From: Minisyncoccota bacterium
Lineage (GTDB): Bacteria; Patescibacteriota; Minisyncoccia; Phycocordibacterales; UBA2135
Length of the DNA: 34,931 nt
Direction of reading: 5' to 3'
Assembly: GCA_040879685.1 (NCBI GenBank)
Contig: JBBDJW010000004.1
Coordinates: forward strand, 1 to 34,931
Of the stretch, positions 1-25,625 are shown piece by piece. The notes under the pieces are model-generated. The model was given only the letters and a program-made list of their open reading frames with translations, ran no database searches and was not told the DNA's origin. Numbering within the stretch: the stretch's first letter is position 1; every line of letters begins with the position of its first letter. Both the position numbers and the translations under genes were made by a program.

Positions 1-104
1 AAATCCTGCGGATTTTGCCCGAAATACATTCGAACTTCGTCCAATACACACCGCATTGGTAAATTACGATATCTACTTGATATTGTAATTTGGTAAGTTG
101 GGAT

Positions 105-184
105 GAGGGATTCGAACAGAAGTCCTGTTGTGGACTTCTGCGGAATTTTCCATAGGAAGAAAATTGAATCCCTCCCTCTCCGCA
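105..184 (+). repeat. tRNA-Ser-like 3' fragment (GAATCCCTCCCTCTCCGCA, 166-184) preceded by an inverted T-arm copy (GAGGGATTCGAAC, 105-117) with two hairpins in between
   Basis: 166-184 reads as T-loop end, T-stem, acceptor strand CCTCTCC and discriminator G, typical of tRNA-Ser. 105-117 is the reverse complement of GTTCGAATCCCTC. No D-arm or anticodon arm is seen in the window. Confidence 0.7.
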
Positions 185-247
185 ACTAACAGCTAGCACG
201 AAGAACTATATCGCAACAAATCTTTATGTTTGTGGTAGAGTTGAAAT

Positions 248-916
248 ATGAAGAAGGTGATCATTAATGCTGATGACTTTGGATATAGTAGCAGTATAAA
301 CAGAGGCATTCTTGAAGCTATAAAAAATGATGTGGTTACAAGCACTTCTGTCATGGTATATGGTAGAGCTGTTGATGAGGTTACTGAGCTTTCAGACATT
401 GAAGATATCTCTGTCGGACTCCATGTCCACATGGAGAAAACTATTCTCAATCCGCAAGAAGAGTTTGAAAAACAGGTTGAGATGTTTATTCGCCTGCTTG
501 GCAAAGCCCCCGATCATATTGATGTCCACAAACCTCGGTCATCTGATATGAGCCAGCTCATACCACTTCTTAAAAAATATTCAAAAGACTATAAAGTTCC
601 AGTTAGAGAGCTGAATCACGCAGAGTCAATAAAAGATTTTTTCGGTATTAACGTAAAAAATGAGAATGGTGTTGATCAAGAACGAGTGAGTGTTGAGAGC
701 TTGTTGCGAATCCTAAGGGAGTTAAAAGAGGGTGTTAGCGAGATTATGACCCATGCTGGGTATTCAGATGATGAGTTGAGAGGCATGAGTTCTTACAATG
801 ATACAAGGGAGATTGAGTTACAAACATTAACGGACAAAAGAGTAATTAATTATTTTGGTGAGCATCCAGAAATTCAATTAATAAACTGGAAAGACGTTGT
901 TTTGAAAAAAAGCTAA
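248..916 (+). CDS. ChbG/YdjC (HpnK) family deacetylase
   Basis: N-terminal IINADDFG motif, VGLHV, PDHIDVH, SEIMTHAG and RxxEL near the C-terminus. Confidence 0.9.
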   Translation: MKKVIINADDFGYSSSINRGILEAIKNDVVTSTSVMVYGRAVDEVTELSDIEDISVGLHVHMEKTILNPQEEFEKQVEMFIRLLGKAPDHIDVHKPRSSDMSQLIPLLKKYSKDYKVPVRELNHAESIKDFFGINVKNENGVDQERVSVESLLRILRELKEGVSEIMTHAGYSDDELRGMSSYNDTREIELQTLTDKRVINYFGEHPEIQLINWKDVVLKKS

Positions 917-1011
917 AATGACCTTATAGAATAAAAATATAAATTACAGCTCAGTGTAACTTTATTTACCGATCCACTGTCACTTTTGTCACTTTTTGAA
1001 AAATATAAGGC

Positions 1012-1254
1012 GCACGAGGAACCTTCGATTTATATTCCGAAAAAGGTTAAAATGACCTTACAGGGCTTGACCGACCACGGTTCTCCTCCAGAGGCGGACA
1101 AGTAGCCCGAGGTAGCCCGCAAAACAAGGAACGCAGTGACTATGTTTTGCGAGAGTCCTGAGCGAAGTCGAAGGGCTCCGCATCTTAGAGCTAGCACGAG
1201 GAAGCTTGTTGGCAGTTGCTATATAAGTTTTGCTGTTTGCGATAGAATAAAAAT
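1012..1254 (+). repeat. Intergenic repeat copy R1 (A box - B palindrome - C core - 62-bp insert - A box - promoter)
   Basis: Aligns with 2467-2623 and 3589-3720. Invariant 27-bp core ACCACGGTTCTCCTCCAGAGGCGGACA at 1074-1100. Confidence 0.92.
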
Positions 1255-2343
1255 ATGAATAAAGGTTTTATACAGATTCCAATTTTGATAGCAATACTTG
1301 TCGGTGTTGCCGTGCTCGGTGGCACTGGTTATGTTGCATATGAAGTTGGTCAAAAGTCTTCAGATGATATTCCCGAATCTACAACAGCAACGACTACTGC
1401 GGGGGGTGAAGCTACAACCACTTCCGATTCTACTGATGTTGAAAAAGAACAACCAAAAAATATACAGACTAAAACTGAAACGAGTGTTCCAGCACCAACA
1501 AAAGTTGATATCTCTGTAGATACAGAAATAACAGTTTATTACGGCACTCTGGACGAGGCCCTTATGCATGAAGTACTCAAAAGAACCGCCGACGGTACGT
1601 TTGCTGGTAGTAGATACGTTGAGGAAATCAATGATGAAGATATTGAGTCTTTTGTTTTAGAAAACGGAATCAGAGGCAACAAGGTCCCCATTACACAAGT
1701 TTTTATAGAGCACCATAATATAGAAACCGTTTGTGATGATGAGGGACAAAATTGTTACCCAGACCAAACCAACGCATTTTCAACGAAAGAATATGTAGAC
1801 GAGGCCCTTTATCTTATCCCTGCGACTCAAGACAAACTAACTGAGTTTAAAAATAGTGAACTAGGTTTTTCATTTGTGTTTCCAAAAGACTGGAATACAG
1901 GGGATGTTTATAGAGGCCCCGAAAATAACCATATAGCCCTTTCAGTTAGGCTGCATTCCCCTGATTATTTTTTTGACGAAAATATACGTAATGGAATGGG
2001 TCTTGGTGGGGTTGTTCAAGGAAACGAAATTGGGTTCTTGGTGTTTCGTATAAAAGAAATGCAGGCTATGTATAACTCAGTCCAGAGTATCCTAACTGGC
2101 ACATACCAATCAAAATCAGGCTATTTAAACCCAAAGCTTATATACTCCAATGCTCAAACGTATAAAGTTAGGGGGGTTCAATATTTATTACAACCTTATG
2201 AAGGAACTCCTCGTGGCCTTGTTTCACAATTTGATGAGAATGGACTTGAATACAATTTTTCAATGGACTTATATAAACGTCTCTCAGAAGAAGACTTGCT
2301 TATGTATAAAATAATAGTAAGCTCCTTTACTCTGTTGCATTAA
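1255..2343 (+). CDS. Hypothetical membrane-anchored surface protein with prepilin-like N-terminus (KG|F + hydrophobic helix), T/S-rich linker and PsbP-like C-terminal region
   Basis: MNKGFIQIPILIAILVGVAVLGG; STTATTTAGGEATTT linker; FKNSELGFSFVFPKDW resembles the PsbP-like Y/F-x-N-xx-GF-S-F-x-Y/F-P-xx-W motif. Confidence 0.75.
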   Translation: MNKGFIQIPILIAILVGVAVLGGTGYVAYEVGQKSSDDIPESTTATTTAGGEATTTSDSTDVEKEQPKNIQTKTETSVPAPTKVDISVDTEITVYYGTLDEALMHEVLKRTADGTFAGSRYVEEINDEDIESFVLENGIRGNKVPITQVFIEHHNIETVCDDEGQNCYPDQTNAFSTKEYVDEALYLIPATQDKLTEFKNSELGFSFVFPKDWNTGDVYRGPENNHIALSVRLHSPDYFFDENIRNGMGLGGVVQGNEIGFLVFRIKEMQAMYNSVQSILTGTYQSKSGYLNPKLIYSNAQTYKVRGVQYLLQPYEGTPRGLVSQFDENGLEYNFSMDLYKRLSEEDLLMYKIIVSSFTLLH

Positions 2344-2466
2344 TCTTAACTTTTTCATAAATCTCTTTTACCCCACCTTACGTCTAAATCCCGTAAATGC
2401 CTGGCTTTTACGGATGACTATAATAGCAGATAATACTGAAGTTTTCTTTTTGAATAACTTGAATAA

Positions 2467-2623
2467 CCGAAAATAGTTAAAATAACCTTACGGGGCTTGA
2501 CCAACCACGGTTCTCCTCCAGAGGCGGACAGGCAGCTCGAGGTGGCCACATCTTAGAGTGAGCACGAGGAAGATTGTTGGTGGTTTGCTATGTAAACTTT
2601 GCTGTTTGCGATAGAATGAAATT
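2467..2623 (+). repeat. Intergenic repeat copy R2
   Basis: Core at 2504-2530 and A box GCACGAGGAA at about 2562-2571. The promoter/leader segment nearly matches 1201-1254. Confidence 0.92.
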
Positions 2624-3517
2624 ATGAAAAACAAGGTAAAAAAAGATATAACAGAGGCATTAAAACGCCTGGGGCTGGCGCGCGAAGTTTCTTTAGCAGA
2701 GATTGAAAAAGAAATTTCTCGGGCGGAAACCTCTTTTCAATCTTTTCTGGTTTTAGGTATTCTTAGCCGAATTATGCATTTTCAAGACGATAAATCGGCC
2801 GAACTTTTCATTCCGGCAGTCACTCAATGGAAAAACTATCTGCCGTGCGAGGATTTGGGCGGGTCAACTCCCGAGGAAGAAATGAAAAAATATCCACCGG
2901 GTCCCCGTGAAAGTTTTTTTATCTCTGAAATGATGAATGAATACCAACAACGTCTTGAAGATTTGGAGGAAAAAGCGGAATCGCCCAATGCCGCGCTTGA
3001 ATTTGATGTGCAATCTGATTTTTCAAAATTTCAAGAACAATATTTAAGTCGCGTGCCTTTGGAACAAATATCTGATTTGGCAAACAGCCACCTTATGAAT
3101 ATAAAAGAAATTATAATGGAAGAAAGAAGGAAGGACGGTAAACCCGAGGATAAAATCGCTAAAATCGGCGTAAAAATATTTGCTGAAAATACGGCCGAAG
3201 GGACCGGCGCAAAAATAGCGGCCATTGAAGATAAGTATATAAACACGCTTGAAGAGTTAATGAATATGCAGCAAAATCCTGGCGCGCGGAGCAAGTCTCG
3301 CGTCCGCCAAATCCGTAAGCAGTTTGAACAAGAAGAACCTTACCATCGCTGCGGGCCGGCTCCGCATCAATTTTATTCTAATTATGCCGCCGTTGTTTTT
3401 CTTGACGATGGAGAGTCCGTAGAGTTTGCCATATCTCTTCTTGACCGCGCTCTTTCATACAAACCCGACTATGACTATGCACTGGAAATGAAAAAGGGAC
3501 TGAAGGACATGGCGTAA
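2624..3517 (+). CDS. Hypothetical acidic helical protein with a possible C-terminal TPR-like repeat
   Basis: 297-aa ORF. The C-terminus FAISLLDRALSYKPDYDYALEMK resembles a TPR helix pair. Confidence 0.75.
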   Translation: MKNKVKKDITEALKRLGLAREVSLAEIEKEISRAETSFQSFLVLGILSRIMHFQDDKSAELFIPAVTQWKNYLPCEDLGGSTPEEEMKKYPPGPRESFFISEMMNEYQQRLEDLEEKAESPNAALEFDVQSDFSKFQEQYLSRVPLEQISDLANSHLMNIKEIIMEERRKDGKPEDKIAKIGVKIFAENTAEGTGAKIAAIEDKYINTLEELMNMQQNPGARSKSRVRQIRKQFEQEEPYHRCGPAPHQFYSNYAAVVFLDDGESVEFAISLLDRALSYKPDYDYALEMKKGLKDMA

Positions 3518-3588
3518 ATTGGTTTAGACCCTGGTTGAAGTAAGGACTTTTTGGAATAATCACGATAAATAGCCCCGAGAATTAAGGT

Positions 3589-3720
3589 TCTTAGTACTAG
3601 CACGAGGAATCTTCAATTTATATTCTGAGTAAGGCTAAAATAACCTTACGGGGATTAACCGACCACGGTTCTCCTCCAGAGGCGGACAGGTAGGTCGGAG
3701 AGACTCGAGTGGTCAGCCCT
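3589..3720 (+). repeat. Intergenic repeat copy R3
   Basis: A box CTAGCACGAGGAA at 3597-3609, B palindrome GTAAGGCTAAAATAACCTTAC at 3629-3649, core at 3662-3688. Confidence 0.92.
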
Positions 3721-3864
3721 CTTACACGGAACAGACAGGAAAAGAGGACGTGCAAGAAAAGAGAACAGGAACACTTTATAAGAAGCAGGGAAATGATATA
3801 CTTATATATAGATTGTACAGATATTCTCTATTTATTAGTAGTATAATTTAAGATAGTTCACTTT

Positions 3865-4593
3865 ATGAAGTTACAAATTATTACCAGCACTGCAAGCGGT
3901 GTTATTGGCATCGGTATGCTTTTTGCGCTTGCTTTTACGGTGCCAACGCACGTTCACGCACAAAGCTCGGGGTTGACTGATGACCAGATCAATTCAATTC
4001 TCAACCTCCTCACAAGCTTTGATGCCGGTCCTGATATCGTTGATAAAGTTGGGAATGTCCTGCGTGGTGAAGTAAACGAAGAGGGAAATAAGGACGAAAC
4101 GGAAGATGAACAAAAAGACGAAGAGGAAGAAGAATTTAATAATCGTAGCGGCAGAAGCAATTCCGGTCCGGGTGCTGGGTTTCTCCCCGAACAAGCAAGT
4201 GATCGCGCGAAAGAGGTGATGCAATGCCTCCAAGTTGGCCGAACGCTTGGTGTCGGTAGTGTTGGTCAGGATGTGCAGAACATACAGAAATTCTTGAAGC
4301 AGAAGGGACACTTTGATTATACGGAAACAACAGGATACTTCGGTCCTATTACCCAAAAAGCAGTACAAGATTTCCAAGAGACGCAAGGGATTATTGATCG
4401 CGGTTCACCAGAAACTACTGGCTTTGGTCTTGTGGGTCCCCGTACGCGTGGAGCACTCCAACAAGCTACCTGCTTAAGTGGAAACGAGGTTGGCCCGGGG
4501 AATGATGAAGAGGAAGAGAGCGAGGACGAACAAGAAGAGGAAGAGGAAGATGATGATGACGACGACACTGCAACATCCACTGACGGATCGTAA
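3865..4593 (+). CDS. Secreted protein with peptidoglycan-binding (PG_binding_1-like) domain and acidic low-complexity tracts
   Basis: Signal peptide ending VHA|Q; LGVGSVGQDVQNIQKFL...TGYFGPITQKAVQDFQ...GLVGPRTR; D/E runs. Confidence 0.85.
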   Translation: MKLQIITSTASGVIGIGMLFALAFTVPTHVHAQSSGLTDDQINSILNLLTSFDAGPDIVDKVGNVLRGEVNEEGNKDETEDEQKDEEEEEFNNRSGRSNSGPGAGFLPEQASDRAKEVMQCLQVGRTLGVGSVGQDVQNIQKFLKQKGHFDYTETTGYFGPITQKAVQDFQETQGIIDRGSPETTGFGLVGPRTRGALQQATCLSGNEVGPGNDEEEESEDEQEEEEEDDDDDDTATSTDGS

Positions 4594-4613
4594 TACCATT
4601 TCACGAAACGATT

Positions 4614-4648
4614 AAAACAGACCGATGGAACTCCATCGGTCTGTTTTT
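4614..4648 (+). terminator. Intrinsic (likely bidirectional) terminator
   Basis: AAAACAGACCGATGGA-AC-TCCATCGGTCTGTTTTT, about 20 bp after the stop codon. Confidence 0.85.
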
Positions 4649-4960
4649 GTATGGGCGGAGGGATTCGCCCCGCACCTACGGATATTCCACTCCGCGTATT
4701 CATAGAATGTCTACATACTGCTACTTGCCGGCAGGTAAGATTTAGTTTCCGATGGGGGTTAAGAGCGTTTTTAAGATGTATACCCGTGGTGGTGTGGGGG
4801 GCCTAAAAAAATGAAAGGAAATTTATGGTTTTGGGTTCGAGCAAGGGTTAATATTTCACCGCAGATTTGAGCGCAGCGATAATTTTTTATCGGAGAGATC
4901 CGAGTGCTTTGTGTGTTATCCTATAGATGTTGTCTGAAAGACACCATCTCAGCATACGTT

Positions 4961-5623
4961 ATGAACAAGTATAACTACAAAAGATTTCAACCCAAACTTT
5001 ATTATTCGTCTGACGGGTTTTATGGTCCCAAGCCGGGCGAACAAGCGCCTGACTTTACCGCTTACACACTTGAAGGAAAAGAAGTACGATTGTCCGATTT
5101 TTTTGGAAAACCGATTGTATTGGAAATGGGCAGTGTCACCTGCCCGGTATTTGTCGGCGTTATGTCCCGCATGAAAAAGCTTATAAAGGAATTTCCACAG
5201 GTGCAATTTTTAGTACTCTATGTCCGCGAGGCCCATCCGGGAGAAAAACGAGGTGCGCATCGGTCGAATAAAGAGAAACGCCAACGTGCGCAGGAATACA
5301 AAGCAATGTACAAAGATCCGCGGACGGTACTAGTGGATGACGTATCCGGCTTAGCGCATACAACATACGGCTTGTTCCCCAATTCAGTCTACATCATCAA
5401 AGACGGAATAATCTTTTGGCGCGCCAAGTGGAACCATCCGACAGAACTGCAAAAAAACTTGCGCCTACTATCCGAAGGAAAACCGGCTGCAAAAGAGTTA
5501 CCTTCCGAGGTTCCGGGAGCGCTTAGTCCAAGAGTTTTTTTGAATGGCGGTTTTGTGGCGCTGTGGGATTTTGTAAAAGGGTTCCCGAAACTTATTTACC
5601 TAAAGTCTTTTAAGCGTCGCTAA
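4961..5623 (+). CDS. Iodothyronine deiodinase-like / AhpC-TSA thioredoxin-fold protein (Cys form)
   Basis: PGEQAPDFT..LEG..VRLSDF.GKPIVL; GSVTCPVF; LYVREAHP; LVDD....H..YG.FPN..YII. ATG at 4961 preferred over the upstream GTG. Confidence 0.8.
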   Translation: MNKYNYKRFQPKLYYSSDGFYGPKPGEQAPDFTAYTLEGKEVRLSDFFGKPIVLEMGSVTCPVFVGVMSRMKKLIKEFPQVQFLVLYVREAHPGEKRGAHRSNKEKRQRAQEYKAMYKDPRTVLVDDVSGLAHTTYGLFPNSVYIIKDGIIFWRAKWNHPTELQKNLRLLSEGKPAAKELPSEVPGALSPRVFLNGGFVALWDFVKGFPKLIYLKSFKRR

Positions 5624-5647
5624 GAAAGCAAAATTTGTGCGTATATA

Positions 5648-5685
5648 AAAAAGAAACCGGGTTACCCAACATGTGGATAACCCGG
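5648..5685 (-). terminator. Intrinsic terminator between convergent genes
   Basis: Minus strand CCGGGTTATCC...GGGTAACCCGG followed by TTTCTTTTT. Confidence 0.65.
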
Positions 5686-5688
5686 CGA

Positions 5689-5703
5689 GTCCGCTTCGCG
5701 GAC
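5689..5703 (-). other. GC-rich 6-bp hairpin with GAA loop, candidate DGR homing hairpin
   Basis: Minus strand GTCCGC-GAA-GCGGAC downstream of the putative variable region. Confidence 0.5.
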
Positions 5704-5774
5704 AAAGGTTCAAGGACTCAAAAGCATCAAGCGATCAAGTCTCAAGGTTCAGGACTGCGGAACAGCCTGTCTGC

Positions 5775-6665
5775 CTAGGGAAGAAAGGACGACACCGACC
5801 CATAGTGCCCGTGGGCGCTGACGTACCAGCGCGTGCCGAACTCGACCCTGCCGACGTTGAAGCTGAAGACCGGGGCGCGATCGAAGCGAACGACGGCAGT
5901 CGGATCGTCGAACTCCTCACCGGCGCAGTCGATCCAGAGATCATCCAGATGCTGGAGACGCTCGGGGTGTGTCAAGATCATAATCCCGACGGCGAACGCT
6001 CCAAGACCGCATTCGTTCACCTGCATGACCTCGCGAGCTCGGCGAACCGAGCGACCGCGATGACACAGACCAAACTGGGCGGCCACCACGAGGATGTCGT
6101 GATTCTTCTGCTCGTCGCCGAGCTTCTGGAACATCGCCTCCGTCTTGGCCGACTGGCGCAGACGTTCGCTGGTGATCTGGCCGTCACGGAAGTTGTAGAA
6201 CTTACCGTTACGGGCCACATGAATAGCCTCGAGCACCTTCTGCACTGCCTCGACGTAGGTCGGAGCGACCGTCTGCCACTTCGGGATGGCGAACCATCCT
6301 TCGGCGTGCGTCGGCACTTCTCGTTCGGCGAGCTTCTCGTCGGCGAACCCGATGCCTGGGAAGATCTGGCGCAGGATGTTGGTCTGCTCCGTGATCGACT
6401 TGGGCTTCGTGTAGCCGGAGAGGTAGCCATACTTCGAGGTAACCTCCTCGTTCTTGTACTTGTCGGAAACCGACAGGTCCTTGAGCGAGGTGAGGGCCAC
6501 TTCGCGAATCGCACGGGCGAACTCGTCGCCGTGCTCGATGACGCGCTGAGCGCCGGGGTTGTCGAGGCCGAGATCTTCGAGAACCTTCTCGATGGCATCG
6601 GACCCGAACCGGTTGATCTGCTTGATCTGGCCGGTGGTTGCGGACTGCTGAGTAATCGTCGTCAT
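5775..6665 (-). CDS. GC-rich hypothetical protein, probable diversity-generating retroelement (DGR) target with C-terminal variable region
   Basis: ATG at 6665 with upstream AAGGGAGA. C-terminus ...APVFSFNVGRVEFGTRWYVSAHGHYGSVSSFLP uses mostly NNC codons. Visibly higher GC than neighbours. Confidence 0.7.
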   Translation of the reverse strand: MTTITQQSATTGQIKQINRFGSDAIEKVLEDLGLDNPGAQRVIEHGDEFARAIREVALTSLKDLSVSDKYKNEEVTSKYGYLSGYTKPKSITEQTNILRQIFPGIGFADEKLAEREVPTHAEGWFAIPKWQTVAPTYVEAVQKVLEAIHVARNGKFYNFRDGQITSERLRQSAKTEAMFQKLGDEQKNHDILVVAAQFGLCHRGRSVRRAREVMQVNECGLGAFAVGIMILTHPERLQHLDDLWIDCAGEEFDDPTAVVRFDRAPVFSFNVGRVEFGTRWYVSAHGHYGSVSSFLP

Positions 6666-6857
6666 GACGTTATCTCCCTTTCGTTTAACTATCCGAACCG
6701 CTCGGATTAGCGACTTGTCTCGATCTTGAGACGAGCGTTCTAGGAGCAAAAACTCCCACAACGCTCGTCTCAAAAAGTCCTGAAATATCAAAGTATAATT
6801 ACCACATAAGTATAGCAGGTCGTCAAGTAAAAGTCAAGCGTTGCAAGGTGTCGGAGG

Positions 6858-7580
6858 TAAATGGGGTCAGCCACCATTTTACGATAAAATAACCACATGC
6901 CAAGAATAAACAGAGTTGATATAGGTGGTGAGATAGATCATGTTCTTAATCGCGCTAACGCCCGCGTTCAAATTTTTGATAATGATGCCGATTACAAACA
7001 ATTTGAATATATTCTGGAAGAAGCTGTTGAGAAATATGATATGCGTCTACTAGCATAGCGTATAATGCCTAATTATTGGCATTTAATTTTGTATTCCAAA
7101 AAGGATGGCGACTTACAAGCGTTTTATGGGTTGGTTAAGCAATACTCACACAAGACGCTGGCATATAGCAAAAGATACTGTTGGACAAGGACATCTCTCT
7201 CAAGGAAGATATAAATCTTTTATCTGTGAACAAGGTCAACAATTGCTTACAGTACTTCGTTATGTCGAACGCAACGCTAAAACAGCAAACTTAGTTAAAA
7301 GAGCCGAAGACTGGCGATGGTCAAGTGTATGGAGGAGGGAAAACAGAACATCCAAACAAAAGAAATTGCTAAGCGATTAGCCTATTGGAATACCACAAAA
7401 CTACATAAAAGAACTTAATCTTCCGCCAACAAACAAAGAGAACAAAAAACTGGAACGCTCAGAAGAAAAAAACATACCATTTGGTCGTGAAACGTGGGTT
7501 GATAAGACGGTAAAGAAGTATAATTTAGAACAAGTTTTGCGCGGGGTGGGGAGACCCGAAATGGTGGCTGACCCCATTTA
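6858..7580 (+). mobile_element. Degenerate Y1 (HUH) transposase element bounded by a perfect 22-bp inverted repeat
   Basis: TAAATGGGGTCAGCCACCATTT (6858-6879) is the exact reverse complement of 7559-7580. Confidence 0.85.
6897..7571 (+). pseudogene. Y1_Tnp / REP-associated tyrosine transposase (RAYT)-like pseudogene
   Basis: MPRINR...HVLNRAN...IF...MPNYWHL...GHLSQGRYKS...RYVERN...DWRWSS...GRP. In-frame TAG at 7056-7058, frameshift near 7122, TAG at 7378-7380. The HUH motif has lost its first His. End coordinate approximate. Confidence 0.88.
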
Positions 7581-8026: not shown

Positions 8027-8695
8027 CTAGTGTGCAAAGGTATACGCGATGACACTTCGTGCGCCGGCTTCGCGAAGCACTTTTTCTGCTTCGCGAAGCG
8101 TTGCGCCGGTTGTGGTGACATCATCTATAAGAATAATATTTCTCCCCTTTACGCATTTTGAGTTCGCAACAGCAAAACATCCCACAATATTCGTGAGCCT
8201 TTCTTTTTTGTTTTTAATACTCATCTGCGGAGGTGTCTCTCTTACTTTTGAAAGTACATCATTTCTTAATGTGCAATACGAAGAGCATCGCACGAGCTCG
8301 CGGGCAATAAGTTCTGACTGATTATATCCGCGTGCTCGCAAGCGTTTTTTTGAAAGGGGAATGGGGACAAGGAGTGGTTCTGTGAAGTTTGAGAAAAGTG
8401 CAAGCTCGTTCATGTCCTCAACCAAATGCTCATAGATACATTCCGCGCACGCGCTTGCTAAGAATCGTGCGCTACGATATTTCAAAAGCCAGATTATCTG
8501 GCGTACGCGCTCATCCTTATAGGCAAAACACGAACGGATGGTGCTTGTAAGAGAGGGCTCGGCACTCGCTTCTTGTGAAAGAGTATGTATGCATGAAGAG
8601 CACACATCTACATCAAGGGTTCCGCAGAGAACACAGGTTCTCGGGAAAAGGAGGTTACTTATATCGGCAAATAATACGTGCAGGTGATACTTCAT
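8027..8695 (-). CDS. comF: ComF family (phosphoribosyltransferase-like) competence protein
   Basis: LLFP..CVLC...CSSC zinc ribbon; RGYNQSE; IILIDDVTTTGATL. Confidence 0.92.
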   Translation of the reverse strand: MKYHLHVLFADISNLLFPRTCVLCGTLDVDVCSSCIHTLSQEASAEPSLTSTIRSCFAYKDERVRQIIWLLKYRSARFLASACAECIYEHLVEDMNELALFSNFTEPLLVPIPLSKKRLRARGYNQSELIARELVRCSSYCTLRNDVLSKVRETPPQMSIKNKKERLTNIVGCFAVANSKCVKGRNIILIDDVTTTGATLREAEKVLREAGARSVIAYTFAH

Positions 8696-24650: not shown

Positions 24651-24721
24651 AGCGGGTTGGAGGAGAGGTACCTCGGGAGGCTCATAACCTCCAGACGCCG
24701 GTTCGATTCCGGCACCCGCAA
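24651..24721 (+). tRNA. tRNA-Met(CAT), probable initiator fMet
   Basis: Cloverleaf with 1:72 mismatch, A11-U24, anticodon arm GGAGG-CTCATAA-CCTCC and T arm GCCGG-TTCGATT-CCGGC. Confidence 0.88.
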
Positions 24722-24725
24722 CATG

Positions 24726-24769
24726 AAAACAAAAGAATCCTTGCTTTAAAGCAAGGATTCTTTTGTTTT
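24726..24769. terminator. 44-bp perfect palindrome, bidirectional terminator-like
   Basis: AAAACAAAAGAATCCTTGCTTT|AAAGCAAGGATTCTTTTGTTTT. Confidence 0.8.
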
Positions 24770-24805
24770 GAAGTTAAGTGTGATACCTTTTGTAATGTAC
24801 TTAAT

Positions 24806-24879
24806 GTCGGGGTAGCTCAGTTGGTTAGAGCGCAACACTCATAAAGTTGAGGTCGTGAGTTCAATTCTCACCCCCGACA
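24806..24879 (+). tRNA. tRNA with CAT anticodon (elongator Met more likely than Ile2)
   Basis: GTCGGGG/CCCCGAC acceptor, TAGCTCAGTTGGTTAGAGC D arm, loop CTCATAA, A31:A39 mismatch. Confidence 0.9.
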
Positions 24880-24954
24880 CAATTGTAAAAGACACCTTTT
24901 TAGTGTATTGTATTTCCTATCTGTGATGGAATGTAAATTTCTGAAACAGTAATT

Positions 24955-25029
24955 GCGGTCGTAGCTCAATTTGGTTAGAGCGCCGCCCTGTCACGGCGGA
25001 GGTTGCGAGTTCAAGTCTCGTCGATCGCG
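24955..25029 (+). tRNA. tRNA-Asp(GTC)
   Basis: CCGCC-CTGTCAC-GGCGG anticodon arm; discriminator G. Confidence 0.95.
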
Positions 25030-25031
25030 CA

Positions 25032-25222
25032 TAAAACACTTTGGTATCAATGCCTGAGCGTTGATACCTTAGTGTTTTACCGACGACGCGAGACTTGAAC
25101 CGAGGACTGGCATTGCTCGCCGAAGGTGACAGCCCGAGTGGAGGTCAAAGGAGTGAGATATTTATGAGCACAAAGTGCGAAAGAAATATCCACGAGAGTG
25201 ACCAAGTCTCGTCGATCGCGCA
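25032..25222 (+). mobile_element. Miniature structured element at the tRNA-Asp 3' end with 20-bp direct repeat
   Basis: CAAGTCTCGTCGATCGCGCA at 25012-25031 and 25203-25222; inverted T-arm copy at 25089-25100; hairpin at 25032-25079. Confidence 0.7.
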
Positions 25223-25228
25223 CTACGT

Positions 25229-25264
25229 GCCACCTTAGCTCAGTTTCCGCCAGAGGCGGACAGG
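25229..25264 (+). pseudogene. tRNA-Thr 5' fragment interrupted by REP-like hairpin
   Basis: GCCACCTTAGCTCAGTT is identical to 25321-25337 and is followed by TCCGCC-AGA-GGCGGA-CAGG. Confidence 0.7.
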
Positions 25265-25320
25265 GTCCGAGTGACACTATGAGTTGAGGTGTAGCAACAA
25301 AAAAAGTACAAAATAATCAT

Positions 25321-25396
25321 GCCACCTTAGCTCAGTTGGTAGAGCGACGCACTCGTAACGCGTAGGTCCCCAGTTCAATCCTGGGAGGTGGCTCCA
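25321..25396 (+). tRNA. tRNA-Thr(CGT), CCA encoded
   Basis: GCCACCT/AGGTGGC acceptor; loop CTCGTAA. Confidence 0.95.
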
Positions 25397-25432
25397 GCTG
25401 AATATCAGCACCCAGTTCCCAGCACCCAGAGT

Positions 25433-25505
25433 GCCACCCTAGCTCAGTTGGTAGAGCATTCCCATGGTAAGGGAAAGGTCGCCGGTTCAAACCCGGCGGG
25501 TGGCT
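25433..25505 (+). tRNA. tRNA-Thr(GGT)
   Basis: GCCACCC/GGGTGGC acceptor; TTCCC-ATGGTAA-GGGAA. Confidence 0.95.
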
Positions 25506-25625
25506 CCTTAAAACACCTCTTCTGGGCGAGTGCCCAAGCGAGCATCTTGTAGGCGGGATATTCTGCTAATTTTTTGAGGTTTTTCCATATTGGAGAAGCC
25601 ACTCTAAATTGGTATAATAAGCCAG

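Follow-up and report, generated by a model that had tools for sequence, protein, structure and literature searches.

How do genes without common ancestry come to stand one behind another in a genome of about 0.5 Mb, each followed by a copy of the same compound repeat? This question is raised by a gene array at the very start of contig C4 (JBBDJW010000004.1) of a Minisyncoccota bacterium, whose assembly (G000) comprises 530,787 bp in 19 contigs with about 43% G+C and is 96% complete. The first 34,931 bases of this contig were analyzed and are referred to as the window. The original prediction, made from the letters of the window, had described three unrelated genes delimited by repeat modules A, B and C and had proposed a gene-capture array driven by a recombinase encoded elsewhere. 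According to our analysis, positions 183 to ~3712 probably represent a head-to-tail accretion array of three recombinase-less cassettes beside the remnant of a tRNA-Ser 3' end. Each cassette closes with a copy (U1, U2 or U3) of a ~95-bp element, which was shown by comparison of loci to form the conserved right terminus of a putative family of integrative elements scattered through Patescibacteria, with autonomous members of 8–10 kb. Thus, one part of the earlier claim stood, namely that the repeats delimit variable, unrelated genes with no recombinase or attC site nearby. A self-contained new repeat system did not stand, because the repeat unit is the terminus of elements that carry a large serine recombinase in other genomes, and active capture found no support, G000 encoding no serine recombinase.

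Repeat modules of the array and the family to which they belong

Modules A, B and C were recovered at the predicted sites by repeat search, blastn and pattern search (feature coordinates are collected in Table 1). The repeat search returned a 94-nt family at 1012, 2442 and 3600 (100, 70 and 88%), four copies of B at 906, 1040, 2470 and 3628, a 40-nt family containing A at 180, 1178, 2546 and 3584, and repeats of the leader between A and ATG at 209, 1216 and 2585. A piece of the leader, 15 bp of which had been noted to recur at 926-940, was found over 19 nt at 926-944 with 95% identity to 1242-1260. By blastn, the unit copies were mutually 88–92% identical over 62–94 nt (1012-1105 against 3600-3693, 88%; 1037-1117 against 2467-2547, 89%), and the leaders of genes 2 and 3 (1178-1262 and 2546-2631) were 85% identical over 86 nt. 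The three cargo proteins showed no relationship to one another by blastp, and the stop codon of the first, YdjC-like gene (914-916) lies within a B copy, both as had been noted before.

The 26-mer CCACGGTTCTCCTCCAGAGGCGGACA of the C core occurred exactly at 1075, 2505 and 3663 in a pattern search of the assembly. With up to three mismatches allowed, the whole 530,787-bp genome contained these 3 forward sites, 0 reverse sites and no further ones, and the reversed-pattern control gave 0/0. The repeats are not scattered singly: every C core of the genome belongs to the array, and on contig C10 a Fic/DOC cassette lies between two diverged element copies. The 11-mer of box A, AGCACGAGGAA, had four exact copies in the genome, three in the window and one on contig C7, 12 nt past the real tRNA-Ser(gct). 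With one mismatch, 20 sites were found versus 18 in the control, which is chance level; it is the longer sequence around them that supports the copies at 195 and 1011.

U1 and U3 matched the full element profile (5' arm, -10-like hexamer, CCTTRCRGGGCTTGAC core and 3' arm), and U2 lacked the 5' arm. By alignment, module A is the 5' arm of the window subtype, and B together with C its interior. The short A-to-B units that had been taken for empty sites are actually the 5' half of this one conserved ~95-nt element. Read in this way, unit 1 runs from behind the tRNA-end copy to the complete module U1 and includes the scar at 906-944; between it and unit 2 lie a spacer of 43 nt and a decayed tRNA end. 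The right ends of units 2 and 3 are U2 and U3, respectively, and the 3' arm of U2 is joined directly to the left end of unit 3.

The distribution of the element was studied in genome contigs, in which a degenerate 20-mer from the B/C border matched 119 loci (loci are given L numbers below) from unrelated bacteria and from other Patescibacteria or bacteria of the candidate phyla radiation (CPR). The whole ~95-nt element, called by nhmmer profile search at E ≤ 7e-10, was present in 25/119, with titles naming Saccharibacteria, Paceibacterota, Campbellbacteria, Parcubacteria and others; the other 94 were seed-only chance matches in unrelated bacteria. An exact 23-mer of the C core had 0 matches in the genome contig collection, and the exact C core was found once in metagenome contigs, behind a gene (L011). 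The family comparison covered 11 genomes, i.e. G000 and 10 relatives, one of which (G010) belongs to another genus. Only G000 and G010 carried the element. In a sample of 401 genomes of the phylum, the element 20-mer was detected in two, the second of which had a 30-nt partial match only. Copies from distant lineages were nevertheless ~80–90% identical. Rarity combined with high identity across distant lineages pointed to mobile DNA rather than to a housekeeping site.

Thirty-one element copies were aligned (alignment A2). The consensus of the common subtype consists of GCTCAAAGACCGTCG (5' arm), AATGATAAGAT (TGnTAnnnT), an A-rich stretch, GTCCTTACRGGGCTTGACCGACCACGGTTCT and AGCTCAAGGACGCCAGCA (3' arm). 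The window subtype has a 19-nt insertion, CCTCCAGAGGCGGACAAGT, ahead of the 3' arm in common with L011 and L083. A -10-like hexamer occupied one alignment column in 29/31 copies and was preceded by TGn (TGnTAnnnT) in 21/31, the window's copies not being among the latter. The element also contains a conserved dyad, GGGCTTGACCG-N4-CGGTTCYAGCYC, and its two arms are direct repeats. The 5' and 3' arms of one copy shared 7.14 of 12 positions, as compared with 6.24 after shuffling, and 14 of 5000 shuffles reached the observed value (22 distinct pairs, uncorrected for kinship); this likeness fits two sites read by one protein. The dyad was considered as the integration crossover and judged unlikely to be it, since it was intact in every integrated copy. 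In many loci, the palindrome TTACA-N6-TGTAA and TGTCACTTTTGTCACTTTTT are located upstream, often with a small open reading frame (ORF) between them and the element; both motifs without the ORF were seen at window 944-997 and in L027, L074, L083 and L087. Several copies start within a few nucleotides of the upstream stop codon.

These features could also be explained by local duplication of a regulatory intergenic region, comprising operator, promoter and terminator-like foldback, through unequal crossing-over or gene conversion. There would then be no mobility, and the genes would stem from unrelated events. The fixed column of the -10-like hexamer and the frequent TGnTAnnnT would suit such a region, as would the 19-nt insertion and the 27-nt invariant core shared by the three window copies and the similarity of the leaders of genes 2 and 3, which extends through the ATG. 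A unit arising in place would, however, hardly be so well conserved in distant lineages and present in only 2/11 family genomes. The 3' arms of U1 and U2 are closer to copies from other genomes (L011/L069 and L083, respectively; A2) than to each other, the unit is the terminus of a discrete mobile element, tRNA-end copies belong to the joints, and neither a terminator nor a sigma-70 consensus promoter was scored in the units. We therefore consider local duplication very unlikely.

It appeared extremely unlikely that the unit is a small gene duplicated between the others, coding for a structured small RNA or for a micro-peptide from the ATG in B (MTLQGLTDHGSPPEADK in U1). The promoter-like TGnTAnnnT does point into B-C, the main subtype and U1 have an ATG in the same frame, and a terminator hairpin follows some copies. 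On the other hand, RNAalifold on the 31 copies yielded 2 pairs at -1.25 kcal/mol without compensatory change (RNA rather than DNA energy parameters). Searches of Rfam with the window at the gathering threshold, with positions 1-5000 at E ≤ 5 and with 12 related loci returned only tRNAs or chance snoRNA-like matches, and single-sequence folds of both strands of the three units had no structure in common. Many copies, among them U2 and U3 (ATA), no longer have the ATG of the common subtype or have it in another frame, and the variable positions of the core lacked a 3-nt period (column counts read by eye). Coding on the minus strand was rejected as well: the recombinase ORF of L106 crosses the element in a frame different from that of the window's small minus-strand ORFs. 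Mimicry of tRNA by the 3' half of the element, evaluated by local alignment against the genome's 39 tRNAs with 300 shuffles, was not robust (p ~0.78 for U1, 0.02 for L087 with its T-arm-like CGGTTCCAGCCCGA and 0.52 for the main type). Resemblance to a dif/Xer site was loose and is not claimed.

Serine-recombinase elements bounded by the same terminus

When 16 oriented loci were compared pairwise by blastn, homology always stopped 44–59 nt past the start of the seed, i.e. at the end of the 3' arm. The sequence past this arm differed among U1, L069, L087 and L011. Three genomes (L139/140/141), for which 20 kb each were compared, had 8.2–8.8 kb in common at ~90% identity, with sharp borders on both sides and nothing shared beyond. 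From left to right, the shared segment contains a large serine recombinase gene on the opposite strand (Resolvase, Recombinase, Zn_ribbon), a weakly TerL-like gene, a helix-turn-helix (HTH)/TerS-like gene, a ParB_N-methylase gene, a LexA/S24 repressor gene and a gene for a 303-aa protein. The right part holds a cyclic-oligonucleotide-based antiphage signaling system (CBASS; SMODS, Cap15), a small ORF and the element. Between the same borders, L015 and L016 have Thoeris (ThsA, ThsB) in place of CBASS. The swappable cargo slot thus sits between the repressor gene and the terminal module. A 9.7-kb version, measured from the recombinase stop codon to the element, is present in a complete genome (L156).

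A recombinase gene was located left of the element in L139/140/141, L027 and L156, with remnants in the same position in L087 and L029. In L106 (gene) and L024 (remnant), the recombinase converges on the element from the right, which corresponds to a right-end/left-end joint. PF07508 was detected in 3/5 element-bearing genomes versus 3/10 family relatives; this difference was not used as evidence. No serine recombinase was found in the window or elsewhere in G000, and the only tyrosine recombinase match of the genome (PF00589) lies on a distant contig (C12:49828-50337). The array would accordingly be a fossil now or be movable only by an enzyme acting in trans.

tRNA ends, cassette joints and the mode of accretion

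By blastn, positions 166-209 were 95% identical to C7:282-239, a stretch made up of the end of the real tRNA-Ser(gct) on the 3' side and 27 nt of flank. A tRNA-Ser 3' end lying on the strand of the cargo genes thus marks the beginning of the array. The remnant itself is a 3'-end copy on the plus strand (166-182) preceded by an inverted self-copy and two hairpins (100-165), and neither ARAGORN nor Rfam called a tRNA at 100-182. Box A begins 12 nt after the remnant, in place of the 8 bp given earlier for the start of the array. A second, decayed 3'-end copy is present at 1164-1180, and the joints at 2549 and 3587 have no recognizable tRNA piece.

The sequence CATCT(T/A)A(G/C)AG..AGCACGAGGAA follows the real tRNA-Ser on C7, the copy at 166-182, the decayed end at 1164-1180 and the 3' arm of U2. 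Similar exchanges were seen elsewhere. In L087, the same ~130 nt stand behind the 3' arm (..GGTAGCCCG) and, 370 nt further along, behind the 3' end of a tRNA-Ser (..CACCGCCTCCG). In L048/L156, a tRNA 3' fragment is followed by the flank ACGATAATCCAAAATACCGATTGAGGTATT, and a second copy of the fragment by a 1.2-kb two-gene unit without recombinase (MGE-b), which starts with AATGATCTTAG and leads through element b into the same flank. Comparison of these joints showed that the 3' arm and a tRNA 3' end interchange ahead of the same flank in three lineages. The left-end 21-mer CATCTTAGAGCTAGCACGAGG, searched with up to three mismatches in the 11 family genomes, occurred only in G000 (3x) and G010 (1x, 21/21). 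Since these are the two genomes that bear the element, the 21-mer is part of the mobile unit and not native flank of tRNA-Ser. The tRNA-Ser 3'-end copies and their flank belong to the repeat, which fits serial integration beside the tRNA.

The cargo has the marks of accessory genes. None of the three cargo genes had a homolog in the family relatives at E ≤ 1e-5 (0/10 for each), and PADLOC, run on five proteins (cargo 1-3 and the products of 3865-4593 and 5775-6791), as well as PHROGs, run on cargo 1-3 and 5775-6791, returned nothing. G010 has the same repeat architecture with other genes, in the order RibD_C-like gene, element, tRNA fragments, CATCTTAGAGCT plus A, leaderless P-loop kinase gene, and A plus the first half of the element, the last sitting 2 nt past the kinase stop codon. 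The repeats therefore delimit variable genes, as had been proposed, and genome comparison showed the cargo to be accessory and a parallel array with other genes to exist in another genus. Within G000, two diverged element copies at C10:883-1656 surround a 61-aa ORF and a 95-aa Fic/DOC gene (Pfam E 3.7e-8), probably a toxin-antitoxin pair. A -10-like hexamer (TAGAAT, TATAAT) 6–7 nt before the ATG and no Shine-Dalgarno sequence were noted at window 1243-1257 and 2612-2626 and on the reverse strand of the G010 locus (L149, ~8160-8180). This placement suggests that the cassettes carry predicted promoters of their own and give rise to leaderless transcripts.

In each cassette, one accessory gene stands between a left end composed of CATCTTAGAG(CT), box A AGCACGAGGAA and a leader in which TAGAAT precedes the ATG by 6 nt, and a right end formed by a copy of the ~95-bp element, i.e. 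an A-type 5' arm, the -10-like hexamer, module B, the dyad of C and a 3' arm repeating the core of A. From these results we propose the following course of events. Cassettes, or longer elements that were trimmed later, would have been inserted serially, the site-specific recombination taking place at the 3' end of tRNA-Ser or at the terminus of a resident cassette, and attP-like right-end/left-end joints would be the result. Each joint has two or three A-type boxes, which may be binding or crossover sites for the recombinase or an accessory factor. In this scheme we infer, rather than observe, the crossover point and the roles of the dyad and of the internal promoter.

Variation at the borders was looked for in the sample, i.e. 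in assembled contigs from three runs of one study; stretches of the window uncovered by contigs in runs X2 and X3 were left out of the reading. Unitigs at a depth of 7–12 tiled the array region without differences and broke at every repeat. Other sample contigs with a related element diverged exactly after 1121, where the 3' arm ends, or after 1206, at box A. In one contig, 1176 was preceded by a tRNA-like end of another kind, one of higher depth contained two element copies in tandem, and one of 134 nt at a depth of 2–3.6 joined 201 to 1216 with ten other letters, as though it had no cassette 1. These differences hint at variation at the predicted borders and are not a proof of excision.

A rival reading is that the array belongs to a serine-recombinase cassette system that is still active. 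Single-gene units would excise as circles and re-insert at tRNA-Ser ends or resident elements with the enzyme of autonomous family members acting in trans, which would make them analogues of integron cassettes with another enzyme and another site. Single genes with both ends preserved were counted in no fewer than six places, namely the three window cassettes, MGE-b of L048, the G010 kinase and the C10 Doc unit, and random decay of 9-kb elements would rarely leave such units. The position of several element copies directly behind a stop codon resembles that of attC sites, the joint of U2 and cassette 3 is a direct fusion of right and left ends, the short low-depth contig has no cassette 1, and the left end is identical (21/21) in two genera, which suggests recent exchange. 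However, no circle junction was seen in the assembled contigs, the genome has no serine recombinase, and the array is partially decayed (U2 without 5' arm, U3 with a diverged 3' arm, scar at 906-944). The variant contig, with its ten substitutions, may stem from another strain or organism. We thus regard an active system as unlikely.

A wider proposal would combine these elements into an integron-like serine-recombinase cassette system of Patescibacteria. Single genes with leaderless promoters, enclosed by a short left end and a ~95-bp right end with repeated recombinase boxes, would move as non-autonomous circles and stack at tRNA 3' ends, served in trans by 8–10-kb satellite-like elements that shuttle CBASS and Thoeris. 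We put this forward tentatively and consider it rather doubtful.

Several observations weigh against the preferred account, accretion of recombinase-less cassettes beside the tRNA-Ser remnant. As the unitigs break at each repeat, the order of the cassettes rests on the original metagenome assembly. Neither an empty site nor a circular form was seen in the assembled contigs. For the window subtype, a fragment of a recombinase in cis was found only in L087, and a genome that is 96% complete in 19 contigs has no serine recombinase of its own. Among the relatives, 3/10 have serine recombinases, and two of these do not have the element. Such recombinases being common regardless of the element, the link to them rests on co-location at individual loci, mainly of the main subtype. 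The large element of the complete genome (L156) has an HsdR-like gene and no tRNA on its left, and the three related large elements lie in three unrelated contexts; the tRNA-end junctions thus concern only the small cassettes. Restoration of a tRNA by joining the flanks of the L156 element was considered and rejected. The duplications of the 86-nt leader and of the 130-nt L087 flank exceed a typical core, and homologous recombination would explain them equally well. Finally, the element was absent from viral, phage and plasmid collections: three loci in IMG/VR viral contigs were all seed-only chance matches in high-GC contigs, and a distant blastn search with a main-type copy found nothing in the phage or plasmid collection. 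A viral origin was rejected on the same results.

Table 1. Features of the cassette array and of the hairpin element ahead of it (window coordinates)
Feature	Coordinates	Strand	Evidence
Hairpin element: inverted copy of tRNA T-arm/acceptor, two short hairpins, direct copy of tRNA-Ser(gct) 3' end (166-182)	100..182	+	blastn to C7
Cassette 1 left end: CAACTAACAGCT, box A (195-205, AGCACGAAGAA), leader up to ATG	183..247	+	repeat families; same block after tRNA-Ser on C7
Cargo gene 1, YdjC-like, 222 aa	248..916	+	Pfam PF04794, E 1.5e-35
Scar: B copy (906-929) fused at CCTTA to copy of TAGAAT leader end (926-944, ATG -> ATA)	906..944	+	repeats, sequence reading
Upstream module: palindrome TTACA-N6-TGTAA (944-959), TGTCACTTTTGTCACTTTTT (978-997)	944..997	+	both motifs before element in many CPR loci
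Element copy U1: 5' arm/box A (1011-1023), -10-like TATATT, B (1043-1061), C core (1075-1100)	1011..1120	+	nhmmer E 5.9e-20
U1 3' half: 19-nt subfamily insertion, 3' arm AGCCCGAGGTAGCCCGC (1104-1120)		+	alignment A2
Decayed tRNA-Ser 3' end	1164..1180	+	sequence reading, repeats, blastn
Cassette 2 left end: CATCTTAGAGCT (1181-1192), box A (1193-1203), leader with TAGAAT (1243-1248) 6 nt before ATG	1181..1254	+	repeats; 21-mer identical in G010
Cargo gene 2, 362 aa, N-terminal membrane helix, without family match	1255..2343	+	Pfam, PADLOC, PHROGs
Element copy U2, without 5' arm: B, C core (2505-2530), 3' arm AGCTCGAGGTGGCCA (2534-2548)	2458..2548	+	nhmmer E 1.8e-15, profile positions 21-96
Cassette 3 left end, abutting U2 3' arm: CATCTTAGAGTG, box A (2561-2571), leader	2549..2623	+	85% to 1178-1262; 21-mer with 2 mismatches
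Cargo gene 3, 297 aa, without family match	2624..3517	+	Pfam, PADLOC, PHROGs
GTTCTTAGTACT, then element copy U3: box A (3599-3609), TATATT, B, C core (3663-3688), diverged 3' arm (~3693-3712)	3587..3712	+	nhmmer E 1.8e-15, alignment A2

Relation to known systems and neighbouring features

Judged from the available portions of the source, the closest described case is that of the tycheposon-shaped islands of Prochlorococcus. Tycheposons integrate at tRNA genes and stack by successive integration, leaving partial tRNAs and degenerate remnants; 910/937 tycheposons use tyrosine recombinases and a minority large serine recombinases, and some are terS-bearing and resemble phage-inducible chromosomal islands (PICIs), with cargo in plug-in cassettes (Hackl et al., bioRxiv 10.1101/2020.12.28.424599). 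The two systems are alike in the streamlined host genome, in stacking on the side of a tRNA, in tRNA pieces or remnants between the cargo, and in the occurrence of large serine recombinases and terS. Unlike tycheposons, the elements described here inhabit another host phylum, the window units are single genes that kept both ends and have no integrase, and the large relatives are not inside tRNA genes. The hallmark here, a ~95-bp terminal element with repeated A-type boxes, was not met in the parts of the tycheposon description that were available.

Integrons and clusters of attC sites lacking an integrase (CALINs) are defined by attC sites with R'' and R' boxes and a single-strand fold that is conserved in structure; integrons also have an IntI-type tyrosine recombinase beside an attI site, which a CALIN can do without. 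The array shares with them unrelated single genes in the same orientation, a conserved element right after the stop codon, cargo of toxin-antitoxin type (the C10 Doc unit) and the lack of a recombinase in cis. In contrast to attC sites, the element has no attC boxes and no consensus fold, its copies being conserved in sequence, and no IntI-type enzyme was found nearby. A pattern search of window 1-4000 on both strands, with a spacing of 40–140 nt required, found one RYYYAAC and one GTTRRRY and no pair; the earlier statement that neither a recombinase nor an attC-type site is nearby was thus confirmed. The cassettes also differ from those of integrons by their predicted own promoters and by the tRNA-end copies in the joints. 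The layout is integron-like, and the array is not an integron, as none of the integron features looked for was found.

Phage-inducible chromosomal islands and other phage satellites carry variable defence cargo. The autonomous 8–10-kb relatives resemble them in having an integrase, terminase-like genes, a LexA/CI-type repressor and a CBASS/Thoeris slot. They differ in that neither a helper phage nor a capsid nor signs of induction were seen and that the element was absent from the viral collections screened, and the window has only ends and single genes. In islands of the type mapped by Islander from displaced tRNA fragments, a tyrosine integrase is said to cross over inside the tRNA gene, which the island restores. 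Here, too, tRNA 3'-end copies mark the borders of inserts, and serial insertion pushes older inserts outward; in contrast, the joints lie at the last base of the tRNA, 2/3 of the inter-cassette joints have no recognizable tRNA piece, and the associated enzyme is a serine recombinase. The array is classed with the tRNA-linked accretion of islands, within which it is set apart by a distinctive terminal element that is widely shared and by units of unusually small size with both ends kept. No description of the ~95-bp element was found in the literature on integrative elements, islands and recombinases of Patescibacteria/CPR.

The ultra-small bacteria of the CPR are considered to possess only a few of the classical means of exchanging genes, and little is understood of the ways in which accessory and defence genes reach them. 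The signature formed by the ~95-bp terminal element and the left-end block ties serine-recombinase elements carrying CBASS or Thoeris to single-gene stacks at tRNA remnants. Should the small units be mobile, this signature would offer a direct way to find a flexible gene pool in metagenomes and a compact, testable recombination system with defined ends and candidate enzymes. Even as fossils, they would record the build-up of islands in ~0.5-Mb genomes.

The remnant at the head of the array belongs to a group of ~75–80-nt hairpin elements, which were located at window 100-182, C7:9216-9480, C7:28163-28272, C2:30355-30703, C2:39128-39172 and C6:18606-18668. Each consists of an inverted T-arm/acceptor copy, a two-hairpin core (..GGAAGTCTGGGAGGAGACTTCC.. 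and ..GGGATTTTCCCTGGGAGGAAAATC..) and a direct 3'-end copy. Related elements follow the tmRNA gene, two tRNA-Arg genes and one tRNA-Glu gene, and each is built on the end of its own gene. A terminator-like hairpin is often located ahead, some elements form 2–3 tandem copies, and an analogue of different build occurs in L048/L156. Ahead of the real tRNA-Ser(gct), a small and apparently frameshifted GIY-YIG gene is present at C7:239-700 (minus strand), with a 14-nt copy of the tRNA 5' end, GGAGAGGTGCCAGA, upstream of it. Five other CPR loci have a small GIY-YIG gene close to the element, and in L087 such a gene immediately precedes tRNA-Ser. In the latter locus, the gene lies between the ~130-nt duplicates (L087:3590-4200), and ARAGORN gave the anticodon of that tRNA as ACT.

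Further observations concern the window downstream of the array. The peptidoglycan-binding (PG-binding) gene at 3865-4593 had PHROGs matches only to an endolysin family. At 6888-7380, a reading frame is broken by an in-frame stop and a frame change; a HUH/IS200-like pseudogene had been suspected there from a motif and was rejected, as Pfam on the three pieces gave no support. At 24651-25507, five tRNA genes are clustered (Met, Met, Asp, Thr, Thr). The block at 5600-6800 has 54–61% G+C in a genome of ~43% and contains a 338-aa minus-strand ORF without family match that is present in 2/10 relatives; it is probably foreign DNA. Finally, a perfect 16-bp hairpin at 4614-4647 precedes TGGGCGGAGGGATTCG, a sequence similar to the start of the hairpin element at 99-114 with its inverted tRNA end, and the region 4614-4700 may be another island border.

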